DNA of 61,295 nt, taken from IMG/VR virus record IMGVR_UViG_2049941000_000201. One strand, 5' to 3'. The notes under the pieces were generated by a model. The model was not told where the DNA came from. It ran no database searches and was given only the letters and a program-made list of their open reading frames with translations. Source of the DNA: an uncultured virus (IMG/VR IMGVR_UViG_2049941000_000201) (Duplodnaviria > Heunggongvirae > Uroviricota > Caudoviricetes). The translations under genes were made by a program, and so were the position numbers. Every line of letters starts with the position of its first letter. Position 1 is the first letter of the stretch. Of this stretch, positions 17,250-53,659 are shown in pieces.

Positions 17250-18257
17250 TTAGGAAAACGTTTCAATGGTGGCAAGGGTTAGGACATGCCACCCGTAATC
17301 TATATTGTTCGTGTCAAAGTGCTTGTCAAAGTTTTGCAGCACGCTCGCGGCCTGGCTAATGCGCGGGTCGCCAAGGTTTGCGCCGCCCTTGCCCAGCAAA
17401 ATTCCGTTCGCCCAGGCCATTGCCATTTTGCCCAGGGTCATGCTGTCTTCCTTGCCCTCGGTTTTCATTTTCTTAATAAGCGTCAGCGCGTTCACAAGGC
17501 TGGGCTCCTGCCCCTTCCCGAAGCCGCCCATAAGTGCAAGGCAGAAATTTTTTGCATCCTCGCTTTCCGCTTCAATGCAAACCTTGTTCGTGAGAACCTT
17601 AATTTGCTCTTCTTCGGTTGCAATGCCGCTCACGCTTTCCAGCGCAACCAGCAGTGCACGCGGGGAACCTTCGCCAACTTCCACAATTTTGTTAAACACG
17701 GCGTCGGAAATTTCAATGCCTTCCTTTGTTGCCACTTCGTCCACCAGTTGCATGGCTTCCTTTTTGGCAAGCGGTTCCACCTTCCACTGGGTGAGCCTGG
17801 TGGTCAACGCGCTAACCTTTTCCCCCTTGTCGCCCTTGAAGAACTTGTCCGGGTTTGTGGTGCAGAAAAAGATGTAGTTAAAGTCCGCGCCATCTTCGCA
17901 GGGTTTCAAAAGCAGGCTTTTGGCTGCGGGCGTTAGTTGCTGGCATTCGTCAATGATAAAAATGTTGTAGTTCCCAATGAGCGGGAGGCTTTTCATTGCC
18001 TCCTCCACGCCGCGCATTGCATCCACGCCGTTCAAACTGGAAGCGTTGATTTCGTCAATGTTTGCGTCCGTTGCGCCCAGGAACTCCTTGCTTACGGCAC
18101 GCGCCAGGGTGGTTTTTCCGCAGCCGCTGGCGCCATAGAGCAGGATGGCGTGGTTGTGATTTTTCTTTGCAAAGTGCGCTTTAATTTGGCTGATGAGCGC
18201 GGTGTTGCCTTTCATTTCCGCAAGCGTTTGCGGGCGGTGTTTTTTGTAAAGCGACAT
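17250..18257 (-). CDS. dnaX: Clamp loader, DNA Pol III gamma/tau-like AAA+ ATPase
   Basis: SLYKKHRPQTL, GASGCGKTT, IIDECQQL and GSPR motifs. Confidence 0.9.
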   Translation of the reverse strand: MSLYKKHRPQTLAEMKGNTALISQIKAHFAKKNHNHAILLYGASGCGKTTLARAVSKEFLGATDANIDEINASSLNGVDAMRGVEEAMKSLPLIGNYNIFIIDECQQLTPAAKSLLLKPCEDGADFNYIFFCTTNPDKFFKGDKGEKVSALTTRLTQWKVEPLAKKEAMQLVDEVATKEGIEISDAVFNKIVEVGEGSPRALLVALESVSGIATEEEQIKVLTNKVCIEAESEDAKNFCLALMGGFGKGQEPSLVNALTLIKKMKTEGKEDSMTLGKMAMAWANGILLGKGGANLGDPRISQAASVLQNFDKHFDTNNIDYGWHVLTLATIETFS

Positions 18258-18277
18258 GTTTGTTTTTCCTTTTTGGT

Positions 18278-18511
18278 TTAAATAATTTCGCAGTTAAGGT
18301 TTATTTTTCTAATTGCGTTTGTTGAAATTTCCGGGCACCCGTTTTTAAAAAACCAGTAGCGGCAAAAGTCACAAACTTCCTTCTGCATGGCCTTGTAGTT
18401 TTCTTCCGTCGCCTGCTGGCTTTCCCATCTTTTTAAAATGGTGTAAACCCCGGCTTCGAGCGTTTCTTGTTCAGCGGCGTCCGCTGCAATAAAAATTCTT
18501 TCTTGTTCCAT
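18278..18511 (-). CDS. Hypothetical protein, possibly leaderless
   Basis: TGCTATAAT lies 5 nt upstream of the ATG. Confidence 0.55.
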   Translation of the reverse strand: MEQERIFIAADAAEQETLEAGVYTILKRWESQQATEENYKAMQKEVCDFCRYWFFKNGCPEISTNAIRKINLNCEII

Positions 18512-18529
18512 GCCTTATTATAGCAAATG

Positions 18530-18901
18530 TTAGCAAGTCGCATTCTTTGCAGCCTTGCGGGCGGAGCGGCGTGTACGCCTTATTTTGTGGTCCCATGTTT
18601 CTTCTATTACCATGTGCTTATTCGCACGGGCAACCGCTGCAATATAATCAACCCCAAGGCGCGTCCAGCAAACCTCCCGCACCCTTTCCGAATATTCAAA
18701 AATGCCCTTTTTGCGCAAGCCCTCAATGATGCCGCCTTGTGCGCCGCCCCGGTAAATTGAACCGGGGTTTACGCGGAGTTTGCGGTGGTGCCATCCGATG
18801 AGATTTGGTGTCGCTATTTGGTACGCCGCCCACGCAAGCACACGAATTTCTTCAAGCGTGCATTCTACTCCGTAAAATTTCAGCCGTGGTGATTTTGCCA
18901 T
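18530..18901 (-). CDS. Hypothetical basic protein
   Basis: TAAGGAG RBS; 123 aa. Confidence 0.6.
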   Translation of the reverse strand: MAKSPRLKFYGVECTLEEIRVLAWAAYQIATPNLIGWHHRKLRVNPGSIYRGGAQGGIIEGLRKKGIFEYSERVREVCWTRLGVDYIAAVARANKHMVIEETWDHKIRRTRRSARKAAKNATC

Positions 18902-18919
18902 TTTGAAACTCCTTATAAA

Positions 18920-19345
18920 ATGGTATGGGCGCGGGCGTTGGTATCAGTTTCCAACCAGCCGCCCGCGCCCTAACGATAGCGCTCTCGCGTTAGCCAACGC
19001 ACCGTCGCTCGGTGGTGCATTCCCGCCCGGTATTTCGGACCCGGTGTCGGCTTCCTATTTGTGGGCAAGCAACGTTCCCAAGGGGTTCACCATTTGGAGG
19101 CGTTGGGTCGATGCGTCGCACTCCAATCATTTCACCCGTAACTTTTGGCGGCTTGTTTACTTTCGGGGCAAGTATGAACCAGCCGTAAAAATATAGCCCT
19201 AATTTGTTCGCCGTACTAGGCAGCTCTTTTCCAAATGGTTCCTTGCTGGCAGCTAACCAACAAATTTTTCACTTTTGTACTAGGAGCCACTTTTCCGGCG
19301 CGGAGTTCCCTTGCAGTTAACAAGGCTCCAAAAACCTTTTTACAC
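18920..19345 (-). ncRNA. Candidate large structured non-coding RNA or leader
   Basis: No substantial ORF on the transcribed strand; own TGCTATAAT promoter (19349-57); tandem motif followed by a series of hairpins. Confidence 0.55.
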
Positions 19346-19376
19346 CATATTATAGCAAAGTGCGTGCAAGTGCTTT

Positions 19377-19595
19377 TTATACGCGCACCGCCATAAAAAG
19401 TTCACCAGGCTGGTCAACCCCGTACAGAAAGGCGCGTTGAAAATGCACCCCGTCCGGGGTTGTGCCAAATTCCCAAACGCGCCGATAAATGTATTTCGCG
19501 GTGCTAAACTTTGGGAAAAGTCCGGCTGCGCTGGCACGCTGGTAAAATGTTTCCTTGTCAACGATTTGCGGTCCTATAAAATAGCGCTTTTGCAT
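19377..19595 (-). CDS. Hypothetical protein
   Basis: AAGGA RBS before MQKRYF. Confidence 0.5.
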   Translation of the reverse strand: MQKRYFIGPQIVDKETFYQRASAAGLFPKFSTAKYIYRRVWEFGTTPDGVHFQRAFLYGVDQPGELFMAVRV

Positions 19596-19608
19596 TTTAT
19601 TTCCTTCA

Positions 19609-20622: not shown

Positions 20623-20907
20623 CTAGTTAAAGTATCCGGCTTCGGTAATGGCGTCCAGGCAAAGTTTCACCTGGTAGGCGAAATTATAGCCGGAAAGGTT
20701 TACTTCCTCGGCGCTGCCCGCCTTGAACAAAACGCTGCCGCCTTCGCTGCGGAAGGTAAAGTCTTCCGGGTTCCAGTGCGCCCGCACCACCATTTCGGCG
20801 ACGGTGCTTGCAACCGGGGTCACGGAAATAATATGGTTCGCGGAAACGCCTGCGGCAATTTGCTTGAAGGTGTTCGCGGTTTTTACAATGAGTTCTTCGG
20901 GTGTCAT
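20623..20907 (-). CDS. Hypothetical protein
   Basis: GGAGG RBS before MTPEEL. Confidence 0.6.
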   Translation of the reverse strand: MTPEELIVKTANTFKQIAAGVSANHIISVTPVASTVAEMVVRAHWNPEDFTFRSEGGSVLFKAGSAEEVNLSGYNFAYQVKLCLDAITEAGYFN

Positions 20908-20920
20908 TTTGTGCCTCCGT

Positions 20921-21076
20921 TTAGAAAAGATGCAGTTCTTGCTTAATGGCGTCCACCTTCGCCAAAACAATCATTTTCGCGTCGCCAGCAATGCCTGCTT
21001 CGGAAAACTGCGCCAGCACTTTTTCAAGTACCTGGCGCTGGTGGTTTAGTTCGTCTGTCCGGGTGTTCCTAACCAT
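20921..21076 (-). CDS. Small hypothetical protein (51 aa)
   Basis: MVRNTRTDELNHQRQVLEKVL...ELHLF; fills the gap; not in the ORF track. Confidence 0.5.
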   Translation of the reverse strand: MVRNTRTDELNHQRQVLEKVLAQFSEAGIAGDAKMIVLAKVDAIKQELHLF

Positions 21077-21087
21077 GCGCCCACCCC

Positions 21088-21334
21088 TTACTTGATTTTC
21101 TTCACCAGTACGGCGGCGTGCAGTTTCTTGATGTTCCAGCCGCCCTTTTCAATGGTGTAAATCCTGCACTTGCCGCCTTCACCGCTCACAACCCCGTTGA
21201 GCATGGGTGCGTAATGTGTTCCAAAGGTAAGTTCCACGTCGTCCCAGCAGGAAACCGCGCCAATGTGCTTCGCGCACTTCGGTGTAGTTTTTAACGAGCA
21301 TTTCTTCAATTTGCTTTAAAAGTTCCGGCTTCAT
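21088..21334 (-). pseudogene. Frameshifted early gene
   Basis: RBS-led MKPELLKQIEEMLVKNYTEV.. is in one frame; ..RIYTIEKGGWNIKKLHAAVLVKKIK is in another. Confidence 0.45.
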
Positions 21335-21340
21335 GGTGGG

Positions 21341-21439
21341 CTCCTTGCTAATTGTTAATTGCTTATGACCTTAATATAGCATTTATTTGCTAGATGTGCA
21401 AGTGATTTTTTAAATTTTTATGTAAAAATTTTGTTTACA
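21341..21439 (-). promoter_or_regulatory. Early promoter repeat, copy A
   Basis: AT-rich UP element, TTGCAC-17bp-TATATT, then leader GCAATTAACAATTAGCAAGGAG. Confidence 0.85.
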
Positions 21440-21440
21440 T

Positions 21441-22190
21441 TCATCGGCGGTGCCCAACCACCCAAAGCAAATCGCCCGGCTGCATGAACGGCACGCACTT
21501 GGCCTCGTAAATTGGGTCAAGTTCCACGCCGCAAAGGCTTGTTTCCGCCGGGGCGTCATGGTAGTCCAGCGGGCTGGCAACCAGTTCAAAATCAACCTTG
21601 CAGCCCAGGAAGGGCTGGTAAAACTTTTCAAGGTTCTTGAGCGAGCGCCTTCCAACCTGGACGCCAAGGACGCGCACGTCGTAGCGCCGGAAAAGCGTGA
21701 GCCCGTTAAGCACGCAGGCCATGGACATTCCGCTGCCAAACGGCACGACAACGCGCCGGACGCCCTGGGGAACGTTTTGCGCCTGCTGCATGGTTGTCTT
21801 GACGTTTTCGGCGCATTCCATTCCGAAAGGAACGTAAAAGAGCCCGTTCTCCTTCGCGTATTCCCTGGCGTGCGCCGCGATGACGTTATTGTAGCCAACC
21901 CTTTGAACCACCACCTGGGAAAACGTGTTTTGCGAAATGGTTTTTAGGACGCTTGTTTCCCTGCCCCGTGGCATGAACAAGAAGCACGGCACGCGCAGGG
22001 CTTCGCAAATGCAGGAAACAATTTCGCACTGCGGGCTTTCCCTTGCGCCTGCGGTTGCAATGCCCTTGAAGCCCTGCGCAAGCGCCTGGGAAATAAGTTG
22101 GAAGGCGGCTCGTGCCTTCCCCCCCCTGGCGCCGTAAACTTCAAAAAGGTCGCCGCGCCGTTCAACCGGGGTCAGTTCTTCAACGTTCAT
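21441..22190 (-). CDS. PLP-dependent enzyme, ACC deaminase/D-cysteine desulfhydrase-like (fold type II)
   Basis: LTPVE, GGKAR, VVVPFGSGMS, VLGVQVG and LDPIYEAK motifs. Confidence 0.75.
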   Translation of the reverse strand: MNVEELTPVERRGDLFEVYGARGGKARAAFQLISQALAQGFKGIATAGARESPQCEIVSCICEALRVPCFLFMPRGRETSVLKTISQNTFSQVVVQRVGYNNVIAAHAREYAKENGLFYVPFGMECAENVKTTMQQAQNVPQGVRRVVVPFGSGMSMACVLNGLTLFRRYDVRVLGVQVGRRSLKNLEKFYQPFLGCKVDFELVASPLDYHDAPAETSLCGVELDPIYEAKCVPFMQPGDLLWVVGHRR

Positions 22191-24871: not shown

Positions 24872-24978
24872 AGTAGGCTCCTTTTGTTGGTCTAGTCTAG
24901 GATTTGGTTTAGGTCTAGGTTAAAGTAAAAAGCACACCGGAACTTCCGGCGTGCTATATTATAGCAAAACGTGCGCAA

Positions 24979-52098: not shown

Positions 52099-53659
52099 AT
52101 GGGAATGAACCTTTTTAGAATTGACGGCTGGAAGAAGTTGCTCACGGGCTTCGGAATGCTAAAGGACAAATCCACGCAGCAGCACGGGCACCCCACCTTC
52201 GGGCGCCTTACCCCGTGGGAACTGGAAGTGCTTTACTATGCGGGCGGCGTGGCGAAGAACGCCGTAAACATACCCGCCGAAAGCATGGTGCAGCACGGGT
52301 TTGAAGTGCAGGGCGATGACGGTTCGCTTTACGCCCGCTTTGAAGAAATTGACGGCGCCAAGCAAATGGAACTCGCCCTTAAGTGGACGCGAATGCTGGG
52401 CGGCGCCCTGGTAATAATGGACGTTGCCGGGGCTGGCGATTGGGACACGCCCTGGTATCCGGAAAGGGGCGGCAAAATTCGCGGCCTGCGCGTTTACCCT
52501 TGCGAGCGCGTTATGCTGGGCGAAATGATGGTTTCCAGCATACCCGAAAGNNNNNNNNNNCGACGGTTCGCTTTACGCACGCTTTGAAGAAATTGACGGC
52601 GCCAAGCAAATGGAACTCGCCATTAAGTGGACGCGAATGCTGGGCGGCGCCCTGGTAATAATGGACGTATCCGGGGCGGGCGACTGGGATACGCCCTGGT
52701 ACCCGGAAAGGGGCGGCAAAATTCGCGGCCTGCGCGTTTACCCGTGCGAGCGCGTTATGCTGGGCGAAATGATGGTTTCCAGCATACCCGAAAGCATTTA
52801 CTTTGAAGATTACGAGCGCTTTGTGGTGCGCAAGGCCGACGGGAACACGTTCACCGTCCACGCAAGCCGCTGCCTTGTGTTCAAATCCGCGACCCCGGTT
52901 GACCCCACGTTCCCCGGCTGGCTGGAATATGAACGCTACTGGGGGCTTTCCAGCATTTACGAAGGCCTGGAAGACGCCAGGAACTACGACATTGGAAAGC
53001 AGGGCGTTGCGCACTTGATGCAGGAGTGCAGCGTTGGCAAGTACACAATTTCCAACCTTGAGCAACTGGTGGCCGAAAGCAACTACAAGGCGCTGGACAA
53101 CCGCCTGGAAGCCATGGACGAACAAAAGAGCGTTATTAACGGAATTTTCCTGGGCGAAGGCGAAAACTACACCCGCGAAAATGTCACCTTTGCGGGCGTG
53201 CCGGAAATTATGGACAGGCAAATGATGGCCGTTTCCGGTTCCTACCGCATACCCGTGACCAAGTTGTTCGGGCGCAGCGCCGCAGGCATGAACGCCACGG
53301 GCGAAGGCGACGATGACAACTACAACGCAACCATCGCGGGCTTGCAGAAGGTGCAGTTGCTGCCGCCGCTTAAGCGCTTGATGTGGTGTCTCAACTGCGA
53401 AACAAAAACCATCAAGGGCGAGGGCAAGAACCCGCCGAAAATTTGCATTGACTTCCTGCCGCTTTCCAAGCGCGACCAGTTGAAGGATGCCCAGGTGCGC
53501 GAAACCATGAGCCGCGCCGACCGCAACTACGTGGAAGCGGGCATTTTGCCGCCGGATGAAATTATACGCAACCGCTTCGCGGGCGGCTATAATATAGACA
53601 CCGCCGTGGACAGCGATTACGTGCCGGACTTTGGTGCAGGTGCAGAAACCGAGGAATAG
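52099..53659 (+). CDS. Portal protein (DUF1073-like); internal ~230 bp duplicated across an N gap
   Basis: RIDGW..LLTGFG, YWGLS and IPVTKLFGRSAAGMNATGEGD motifs. Confidence 0.9.

Follow-up and report, generated by a model that had tools for sequence, protein, structure and literature searches.

The stretch of DNA analysed here (IMG/VR record IMGVR_UViG_2049941000_000201; 61,295 nt or ~61 kb, hereafter the window) resembles an entire myovirus-type genome, with head and tail genes at both ends and, in the middle, a divergently transcribed replication block encoding a UvsX-like recombinase, a clamp loader, a sliding clamp, a polymerase, a primase and helicases. On the minus strand of this block, between the genes p72 and p123, lies a stretch without a substantial open reading frame (ORF), which the original prediction had described as a promoter-driven structured RNA of no assignable class, built around a tandem motif. 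The gene directly following it, p123, encodes a basic orphan protein of 123 amino acids and is itself followed by p77 and the clamp-loader gene. We show that the stretch specifies a conserved RNA that is structured and non-coding, is driven by a promoter and fits no known family, and that this RNA is linked genetically to the p123 family. The conserved structure was found in the 3′ domain of the RNA, adjoining p123.

The stretch begins, as had been proposed, at a minus-strand promoter, the extended −10 motif TGCTATAAT. Exact copies of TGCTATAAT occur 13 times in the window compared to 0.13 expected, and none of 100 shuffled sequences reached 13. All 13 copies are located within positions 18517-44806, that is, in the early/replication block, and each is oriented with the surrounding genes. 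A T-rich stretch precedes most of them, and (T-rich)TGCTATAAT is, judging from sequence, the early/middle promoter family of the phage. The copy that starts the RNA is unchanged in L018, a related metagenome contig in which the flanking genes differ by 14%. No exact TGCTATAAT is found between 19349 and the start of p123, and the next copy downstream (18517-18525) precedes p77, leaving p123 with only the exact copy from which the non-coding stretch starts. The sequence GGCTATATT at 19190-19198, near the end of one of the RNA-library contigs described below (X15), could be a second promoter; it was given no weight, being one of 124 two-mismatch sites where 90 were expected.

Other members of the promoter family showed features of their own. 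The 18517-18525 copy stops 5 nt short of the start codon of p77, suggesting a leaderless mRNA, and an ATG directly follows TGCTATAAT in 5 of the 13 copies. Immediately after the copy at 24958 come a GC hairpin and a U run (agcacgccggaagttccggtgtgcttttt; 24900-24966, minus strand), which could give rise to a very short transcript or act as a two-way terminator; a similar hairpin was seen in the loose end of a contig from run X12.

In the gap itself (18902-19376) every ORF was either short or on the wrong strand, and none had a homologue when compared by tblastx with the related loci or by tblastn with GenBank phages. The p123 protein, its homologue in the distant locus L029 (see below) and a 92-codon frame were also searched by tblastn against phages, without a match. 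The mismatches between the window and L029 were distributed 39/39/43 by position modulo 3, and hence show no third-position bias. A 46-codon ORF of the window (19130-18990) lacks its start codon in L029, where its frame is shifted by indels, and by eye it is without the AGGAG-type ribosome site found before the real genes here. The gap is therefore devoid of a credible ORF, in keeping with the original description, and a conserved small ORF that might have explained the conservation was not found, there being neither a kept start codon nor a codon-position bias.

The whole window was then compared with Rfam 15 by cmscan, and no match was obtained at the gathering threshold. At E ≤ 10 the region 18700-19600 yielded only two irrelevant weak matches, on the plus strand and outside the element, and L029:1600-2600 yielded only the neighbouring tRNA. 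No match was found to ROOL, GOLLD, self-cleaving ribozymes, c4, 6S, T-box or riboswitches in Rfam 15, which upholds the proposal that the RNA belongs to no known class, and ARAGORN identified no tRNA or transfer-messenger RNA gene in the window. Neither blastn of the region against GenBank phages nor the literature, as represented in listings and abstracts, provided a match to or a description of this RNA; the same listings and abstracts contained no description of the p123 family. The 446-nt stretch folded better than its shuffled counterparts (−157.6 kcal/mol, z −2.85, 0/100 shuffles as good).

The conservation of the RNA was examined in close relatives. One IMG/VR contig (loci L001-L003) is identical to the window here. 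In L018 the p123 protein is 96% identical, and in L019, a 1.6-kb contig binned in a 'Candidatus Scatosoma' metagenome-assembled genome, it is 99% identical; the binning is only a hint as to the host. Compared to L018, the differences are few in the RNA stretch and p123 and many in p72 and p77 (Table 1), the RNA being conserved better than any other sequence of the locality; the L019 alignment and the X5 and X12 run contigs repeat this pattern. This distribution of changes marks the RNA and p123 as a conserved unit in a mosaic background. The near-identical copies (L018, L019 and the runs) contain no compensatory change. Of the 24 runs listed, 20 contain at least part of the stretch; these represent 13 studies, mostly of bovine, goat and other gut metagenomes. 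In the X12 contigs, from a related phage population, the p77 region (18257-18527) is replaced by 1.0-2.0 kb of other sequence with joints at 18257/18331 and 18280/18506, a mosaic exchange that adjoins the conserved RNA-p123 unit.

The nearest other phages are without the module. Five IMG/VR contigs whose clamp loaders are 77-81% identical to that of the window (L004-L008), together with the more distant L009, retain the UvsX and clamp-loader genes and have no p72, RNA, p123 or p77. A p123-family profile and an nhmmer profile of the RNA detected nothing in these six loci, and the whole records of L005, L006, L008 and L009, one of which is rated 100% complete, held no real match to p123 or the RNA. 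The module is thus accessory. Its distribution in the databases searched was narrow: a strict motif pattern recovered only the identical contig from IMG/VR, a loose pattern recovered 8 stretches comprising that contig and 7 chance matches, two block patterns taken from the 3′ domain recovered only the three known contigs, and a second protein-alignment scan added no new homologue. Among 401 genomes of the order to which genome G002 belongs, blastn identified G002 only, along with five short matches (20-39 nt) attributed to chance. The p123 profile likewise found only G002 among 399 scored Clostridia genomes, and genome G001 had no match to the region.

A distant lineage was reached through the protein. 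An exhaustive phmmer search of 1.84 billion representatives returned 12 relatives of p123 at E ≤ 0.001, most of them 32-41% identical, and their alignment (A4), when used on IMG/VR, identified L028 and L029. These two are identical to each other here and constitute the only distant lineage among the p123-family members whose DNA was compared. The contig carrying L029 is 61.8 kb long and has a completeness rating of 100%; L029 encodes a p123 homologue (31% identity), after which come a small gene and the gene of a clamp loader (39% identity). Directly upstream of the p123 homologue, L029:~2208-2500 aligns with window positions ~19195-18898, and the blocks CCGAAAUAC, CACCACCGAG, UGGCUAACG, GGUUGGAAA and CCGCGCCCAUACCAUUUUA are identical in the two. 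In a 5.5-kb neighbourhood no other nucleotide match between the window and L029 comes close to that of the RNA stretch (71% over 223 nt, E 2.5e-21), E values within the clamp-loader gene being at least 1.7e-4. The last of the identical blocks, CCGCGCCCAUACCAUUUUA, comprises the 19 nt before helix 12 and runs straight into the ribosome-binding site. The RNA domain and p123 have the same order and orientation in the window, L018, L019 and L028/L029, and were present together or absent together in the loci compared. The domain accordingly occupies the position of a cis-acting leader, conserved directly upstream of its gene and along with it, with no exact promoter or called terminator between the two.

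At the position of the tandem units, L029 carries a tRNA-Arg(CCG) and ~140 nt of unrelated GC-rich sequence. Following this tRNA, in L029:1993-2200, are a 10-bp helix (GCAAGACCCC/GGGGUCUUGC) and a terminator-like hairpin seen by eye and not called by the scan; no promoter or terminator was called for the RNA domain of L029. The conserved domain of the window is bracketed on the minus strand by the two copies of a direct repeat of 16 nt, GGCUGAAAUUUUACGG/GGCUAUAUUUUUACGG (81% identical), one at the 5′ edge of the domain (19183-19198) and the other in codons 6-11 of p123 (18870-18885). Within these codons GAAAUUUUACGG is unchanged in L029, although synonymous changes would be possible.

The secondary structure of the 3′ domain was predicted with RNAalifold from four sequences, giving 87 pairs in 12 helices, 17 of which were compensatory, with both sides changed and the pair kept. 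When the 3′ partners were slid by 1-3 columns, 1-4 compensatory pairs remained, and when partners were shuffled the number was 4.3 ± 1.8, with none of 500 trials reaching 17. Since the structure had been optimised on the same sequences, we also refolded 200 column-shuffled alignments in which gap and identity patterns were kept. These yielded 8.5 ± 2.4 compensatory pairs with a maximum of 14 (0/200 reached 17), and the energy of the real alignment, −85.1, compared to −60.5 ± 5.2 for this null (z −4.7). Homologues of the RNA thus do covary, by 17 compensatory pairs in the comparison of the window with L029.

The individual helices are listed in Table 1; helices 6, 7, 9 and 10 and the base of helix 11 have the strongest support. 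Helix 6, which includes UUGGAG/CUCCAA, reads AUGAUUGGAGUG/CGCCUCCAAAUGGU in the window and AAUUACAGACCA/GGGAUGUUGUAGGU in L029. Helix 9 becomes ACCACACC/GGUGUGGU in L029, and in run X12 the change C18999>U gives it a G.U pair. Ten of the 15 pairs of helix 11 are invariant, 2 are compensatory and 3 are broken. In both lineages the loop of helix 12 holds the Shine-Dalgarno sequence AAGGAG (18914-18909) and its stem the start codon of p123 (18901-18899). Most of the helices named in the original prediction gained from this comparison: UUGGAG/CUCCAA, GCACC/GGUGC and the base of the 11-bp stem show compensatory changes in L029, and UAACG/CGUUA is replaced there, in the same position, by GUUG/CAAC. 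The proposed helix CGGCU/AGCCG fared less well, having by eye a possible L029 counterpart (GCCUU/AAGGC) but competing with AGCC/GGCU of the RNAalifold structure. This competition leaves the 5′ edge of the domain uncertain, between 19195 and 19165.

Table 1. Features of the RNA-p123 locus, with their positions in the window and differences from the related contig L018
Feature	Position	Strand	Description	Differences from L018 (identity)
p72	19377-19595		Upstream neighbour of the RNA stretch	30/219 (86.3%)
Extended −10 promoter motif TGCTATAAT	19349-19357	−	Start of the non-coding transcript	
Promoter region				0/31 (100%)
Non-coding RNA stretch	between p72 and p123	−		5/426 (98.8%)
Unit A	19273-19334	−	GCAAGGGAAC, GGAAAAG, CCUAGUAC; probable lineage-specific 5′ extension	
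Unit B	19201-19266	−	Diverged copy of unit A	
3′ domain	~19195-18898 (~270-300 nt)	−	Conserved, multi-helix; 18925-19195 homologous to L029:2208-2480	
Helix 6	19130-19119 with 19102-19089	−	Closes a variable hairpin; 5/11 pairs compensatory	
Helix 7	19073-19064 with 19055-19046	−	GUUGCUUGCC/GGAAGCCGAC; 3/9 pairs compensatory in L029	
Helix 9	19021-19014 with 19003-18996	−	AAUGCACC/GGUGCGUU, contains GCACC/GGUGC; 8/8 pairs kept, 2 compensatory	
Helix 10	18988-18985 with 18976-18973	−	GCGA/UCGU inside UAACG/CGUUA; 3/4 pairs compensatory; GUUG/CAAC in L029	
Helix 11	18970-18954 with 18942-18927	−	Long GC-rich hairpin with invariant loop segment GGUUGGAAA	
Helix 12	18923-18917 with 18904-18898	−	CCAUUUU/AAAAUGG; 7 bp here, 6 bp in L029	
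p123	18530-18901	−	123-aa basic orphan protein gene directly after the RNA domain	13/372 (96.5%)
p77	18278-18511		Downstream of p123	33/228 (85.5%)
Clamp loader	17250-18257		Downstream of p77	

Contigs assembled from RNA libraries of two studies, one from each, map to the 3′ domain, at 18876-19177 (X15) and 18947-19147 (X16, a size-fractionated library); the DNA runs cover the entire stretch in the 1.6 kb compared. The X15 contig spans helix 11 and the ribosome-binding site, includes the first 25 nt of p123 and ends 22 nt beyond the 3′ end of the domain. The tandem units, p123 beyond its first 25 nt and the flanking genes are left uncovered by the RNA-library contigs, which cannot prove absence. 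The predicted transcript is therefore represented in its 3′ domain and not in its tandem units. A scan for intrinsic terminators made no minus-strand call at 18927-18970, where a U run begins 7 nt after the 11-bp stem; taken with the read-through of the X15 contig, this does not correspond to the terminator of a stand-alone small RNA. The contigs provide a weak hint that the 3′ domain is transcribed and relatively stable, with no strict terminator before p123.

The p123 protein matched no Pfam or PHROG family, including the Pfam phage translational-regulator family. A profile search of the PDB produced nothing with an E value under 0.47, and in the ESM Atlas only unnamed clusters were found. 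AlphaFold2 with 3 sequences produced a useless model (predicted local distance difference test score, pLDDT, 41.6); the model used was that from a 13-sequence alignment, with a pLDDT of 72.8 and a predicted template modelling score of 0.60. It comprises a core of the helix-helix-hairpin-helix type and, at the C terminus, a long basic helix, and on the basis of this model p123 is possibly a winged-helix protein.

The original prediction had placed the core of the RNA in the two tandem units, and the units with their shared motifs do exist. The sequence CCTAGTAC occurs twice in 61 kb, both times in the units (0.46 expected; 6/100 shuffles reached 2), and a 20-nt block is repeated at 80% identity with a spacing of 64 nt. 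MAFFT aligned the units as a diverged tandem duplication (UUUG..UUG.UUAGCUGC..GGAAAAG.G..CCUAGUAC), in which 34 of 84 columns were invariant among six rows representing both units from three sequences. The stems said to covary between the units did not withstand this alignment, as UAGCU, an arm in unit B, falls on the UAACU/UAGCU loop of unit A, and GGAGCC, an arm in unit A, falls on a gap; the stems are at non-homologous positions, and their differences are not covariation. Compared to shuffled sequences, folding gave z −0.10 for unit A, −0.06 for unit B and −1.45 for both together. GGAAAAG is changed to GAAAAAG in unit A of L018 and to GGAACAG in unit B of L019, and the outer stem arm of unit B has an A>G change and a 1-nt deletion in L019 and run X12, resulting in an uncompensated wobble pair and bulge. 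No counterpart of the units was found in L029. Tandem riboswitch aptamers were rejected on these grounds, the stems not being in homologous columns, the unit folds having z near 0 and L029 offering no homologue; nor was evidence found for a protein sponge or a ribotoxin decoy. The part of the RNA that is conserved and covaries, and on which the RNA-library contigs lie, is instead the 3′ domain. From sequence comparison, the tandem units are most readily interpreted as a 5′ extension that is duplicated and specific to the lineage.

The units were also compared with the sarcin-ricin loop, to which a resemblance had been noted. Helix 95 of the 23S rRNA in L042 (confirmed large-subunit rRNA, from a Clostridia genome of the same order as G002) reads GAGCUGUCCUUAGUACGAGAGGACC, and units A and B share CCUAGUAC and some of the 5′ flank with its 5′ strand. 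To this extent the likeness is real. After UAGUAC, however, the units continue with AAAAGUGAAA or GGCGAACAAA, so that the GAGA tetraloop and the complementary 3′ strand, GGACC, are missing, and in the model first proposed the 5′ flank of the units pairs instead with upstream sequence. A mimic requires the bulged-G motif formed by both strands as well as the GAGA tetraloop, and was rejected because the units have the 5′ strand only. By rough estimate, an 11-nt rRNA match is expected about once by chance in 430 nt. Type III toxin-antitoxin RNAs of the ToxI kind are built of short tandem repeats that are nearly identical, with a terminator and the gene of an endoribonuclease toxin after them. An antitoxin of this kind was rejected, as there are only two diverged units, no terminator was called, and p123 belongs to no Pfam or PHROG toxin family (PADLOC was not searched). 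A promoter-proximal antitermination RNA, of the kind represented by the put sites of phage HK022, is a conceivable role for the tandem units.

The above considerations lead us to favour, at slightly below an even chance, a 3′ domain that is a cis-acting 5′ leader of the p123 mRNA and sets the amount of p123, probably through p123 or another factor, with a fragment of the leader persisting. The RNA would be transcribed from its TGCTATAAT promoter on the minus strand, and its 3′ domain would fold into several helices ending in the hairpin whose loop contains the Shine-Dalgarno sequence and whose stem contains the start codon. As the 5′ leader, the domain would set the p123 level in cis. Either p123 itself or another factor may bind the conserved loops and junctions, autogenous control being the most probable form. 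The leader fragment would then remain as a stable RNA, and RNA and gene would be inherited as a single module. With only two lineages in hand we infer this mechanism, including cis-regulation, the binding partner and the exact ends of the RNA.

A number of observations weigh against this structure and the role assigned to it. As there are only two independent lineages, all compensatory changes amount to one pairwise comparison. When the minimum free energy (MFE) fold of the window was transferred to the other lineage, 6 double changes were kept and 10 broken, and the reverse transfer of the L029 MFE fold kept 10 and broke 7. The antisense alignment folds equally well (−86.7 versus −85.1 for the sense), and the strand assignment accordingly rests on the promoter, synteny and the Shine-Dalgarno/start-codon context. 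Helix 12 is invariant between the lineages, so its pairing is unsupported by variation, and an alternative pairing specific to the window, AAAUGGU/ACCAUUU, is not kept in L029. The 11-bp stem contains a C>G mismatch in L019. The high identity to L018 and L019 could derive in part from recent recombination of the module rather than from selection. The RNA-library evidence consists of assembled contigs with a depth of ~5.6, which are uninformative on strand, ends and level and may include DNA carry-over. As for the protein, the top Foldseek matches of the p123 model were MarR-type winged-helix regulators and were not significant (best E 0.057, TM 0.44), and RNA binding by p123 is a proposal.

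Much of the same evidence could be accommodated by a stable trans-acting non-coding RNA, perhaps in a ribonucleoprotein (RNP) with p123, that serves the replication or late-expression programme and whose position reflects co-inheritance. The contigs of both RNA libraries, one of them size-fractionated, lie on the domain and not on the p123 coding sequence beyond 25 nt or on flanking genes; the domain is large, and its many helices and long invariant unpaired stretches exceed the needs of a simple operator. That RNA and p123 co-occur or are both absent would suit such an RNP as well. We nonetheless regard a trans-acting RNA as rather unlikely, since no terminator intervenes between RNA and gene, the X15 contig enters the coding sequence, the invariant 19 nt lead directly into the ribosome-binding site, and the contigs give neither abundance nor ends. 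A leader of the riboswitch type, in which a small molecule or ion gates p123 translation through the hairpin containing the ribosome-binding site and start codon, would be in keeping with a coding sequence directly preceded by a conserved junction of several helices that contains invariant unpaired nucleotides, and with a start codon held in a stem in both lineages. It is improbable in view of the absence of any anti-sequestor pairing conserved between the lineages, a regulated gene that is an orphan without metabolic link, and two lineages only, with no clue to a ligand. A bolder proposal, which we consider doubtful, is that the ~300-nt domain is the stable RNA subunit of a new phage RNP with the winged-helix-like p123-family protein, encoded next to the clamp loader and acting in replication or in the early-to-late switch beyond any tuning of p123 itself, or else a new riboswitch class for a host or phage metabolite.

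The locus might also function as DNA, the repeats being protein sites on a replication origin or in an operator array. Its situation between the UvsX-like recombinase and clamp-loader genes, the two direct repeats 64 bp apart, the insignificant match of p123 to winged-helix DNA binders and the failure of folding to separate sense from antisense would all be compatible with this. Yet 17 compensatory double changes are not expected of sites in duplex DNA, the sequence is found in RNA libraries, there is neither an AT-rich unwinding region nor an array of at least three iterons, and L029 has kept the module while missing the repeats, making a DNA-level element very improbable. Least probable of all is that the tandem units are the functional core, whether as tandem aptamer, protein sponge or 23S sarcin-ricin decoy for anti-phage ribotoxins. 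The ordered motifs common to both units, their near invariance among close relatives and the resemblance of CCUAGUAC and its 5′ flank to the 5′ strand of helix 95 had made this attractive. Against it, the distant homologue has nothing that corresponds to the units, whose folding does not surpass that of shuffled sequences; two natural variants each carry a mutated GGAAAAG in one of their units, the stems proposed to covary do not occupy homologous positions, and the GAGA loop and 3′ strand of helix 95 are absent, with a match of that length to rRNA expected by chance. That the RNA-library contigs do not lie on the units is weak evidence, because contigs cannot prove absence.

Elsewhere in the window, further observations were made. 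A second gap of ~530 nt (20907-21441), between p94 and a gene for a pyridoxal phosphate (PLP)-dependent enzyme, contains only ORFs of ~50 codons and had no match in Rfam 15. The PLP-dependent enzyme gene itself (21441-22190, minus strand; Pfam PALP and a threonine-dehydratase-like PHROG) stands beside the UvsX-like recombinase gene inside the replication module, and is unusual cargo for that position. The portal gene is divided into two plus-strand ORFs (52099-52587 and 52610-53659), both of which match overlapping parts of the profile of phrog_146, a portal family; the split (52099-53659) may stem from an assembly error, a stop codon or a frameshift.

The role of phage structured RNAs is known in very few cases, and most of the large ones, such as ROOL and GOLLD, are unexplained. 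The RNA described here offers a handle on the question in its fixed partner gene, defined promoter, compact conserved core and natural compensatory variants, which make binding and reporter tests straightforward. Should p123 and the RNA indeed act together, they would represent a new phage regulatory module or RNP. The RNA-p123 module occurs across ruminant gut samples.

Autogenously regulated mRNA leaders are well known from ribosomal-protein operons and from the translational operators of phage T4 gene 32 and of the RegA type. The RNA considered here would be analogous to these in being a structured RNA directly upstream of, and co-inherited with, the gene of a small basic protein of a nucleic-acid-binding type, and in having a ribosome-binding site and start codon embedded in the structure. 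It differs in that the phage domain, with ~270-300 nt and about ten helices, is much larger than typical operators, and in that we only propose binding here. ROOL and GOLLD (bioRxiv 10.1101/2024.12.08.627333), which occur in phages and prophages, are likewise phage-borne, large, highly structured non-coding RNAs of rumen or gut origin, and the adjacency of the L029 copy of our RNA to a tRNA gene is a further likeness; our RNA, in contrast, has no covariance-model match to them even at E ≤ 10, is about half their size or less, and is tightly coupled to a downstream protein gene. With the orphan riboswitch candidates and structured leader motifs that comparative genomics has identified, such as the 224-motif set (PMC5737381), it has in common a conserved multi-helix 5′ leader with invariant junction nucleotides, but it is not in Rfam 15, is represented by two lineages and precedes the gene of an orphan phage protein. 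We therefore consider the RNA upstream of p123 a candidate for a new RNA family whose general kind, that of structured leaders or non-coding RNAs of phages, is known, with a narrow distribution over two lineages.

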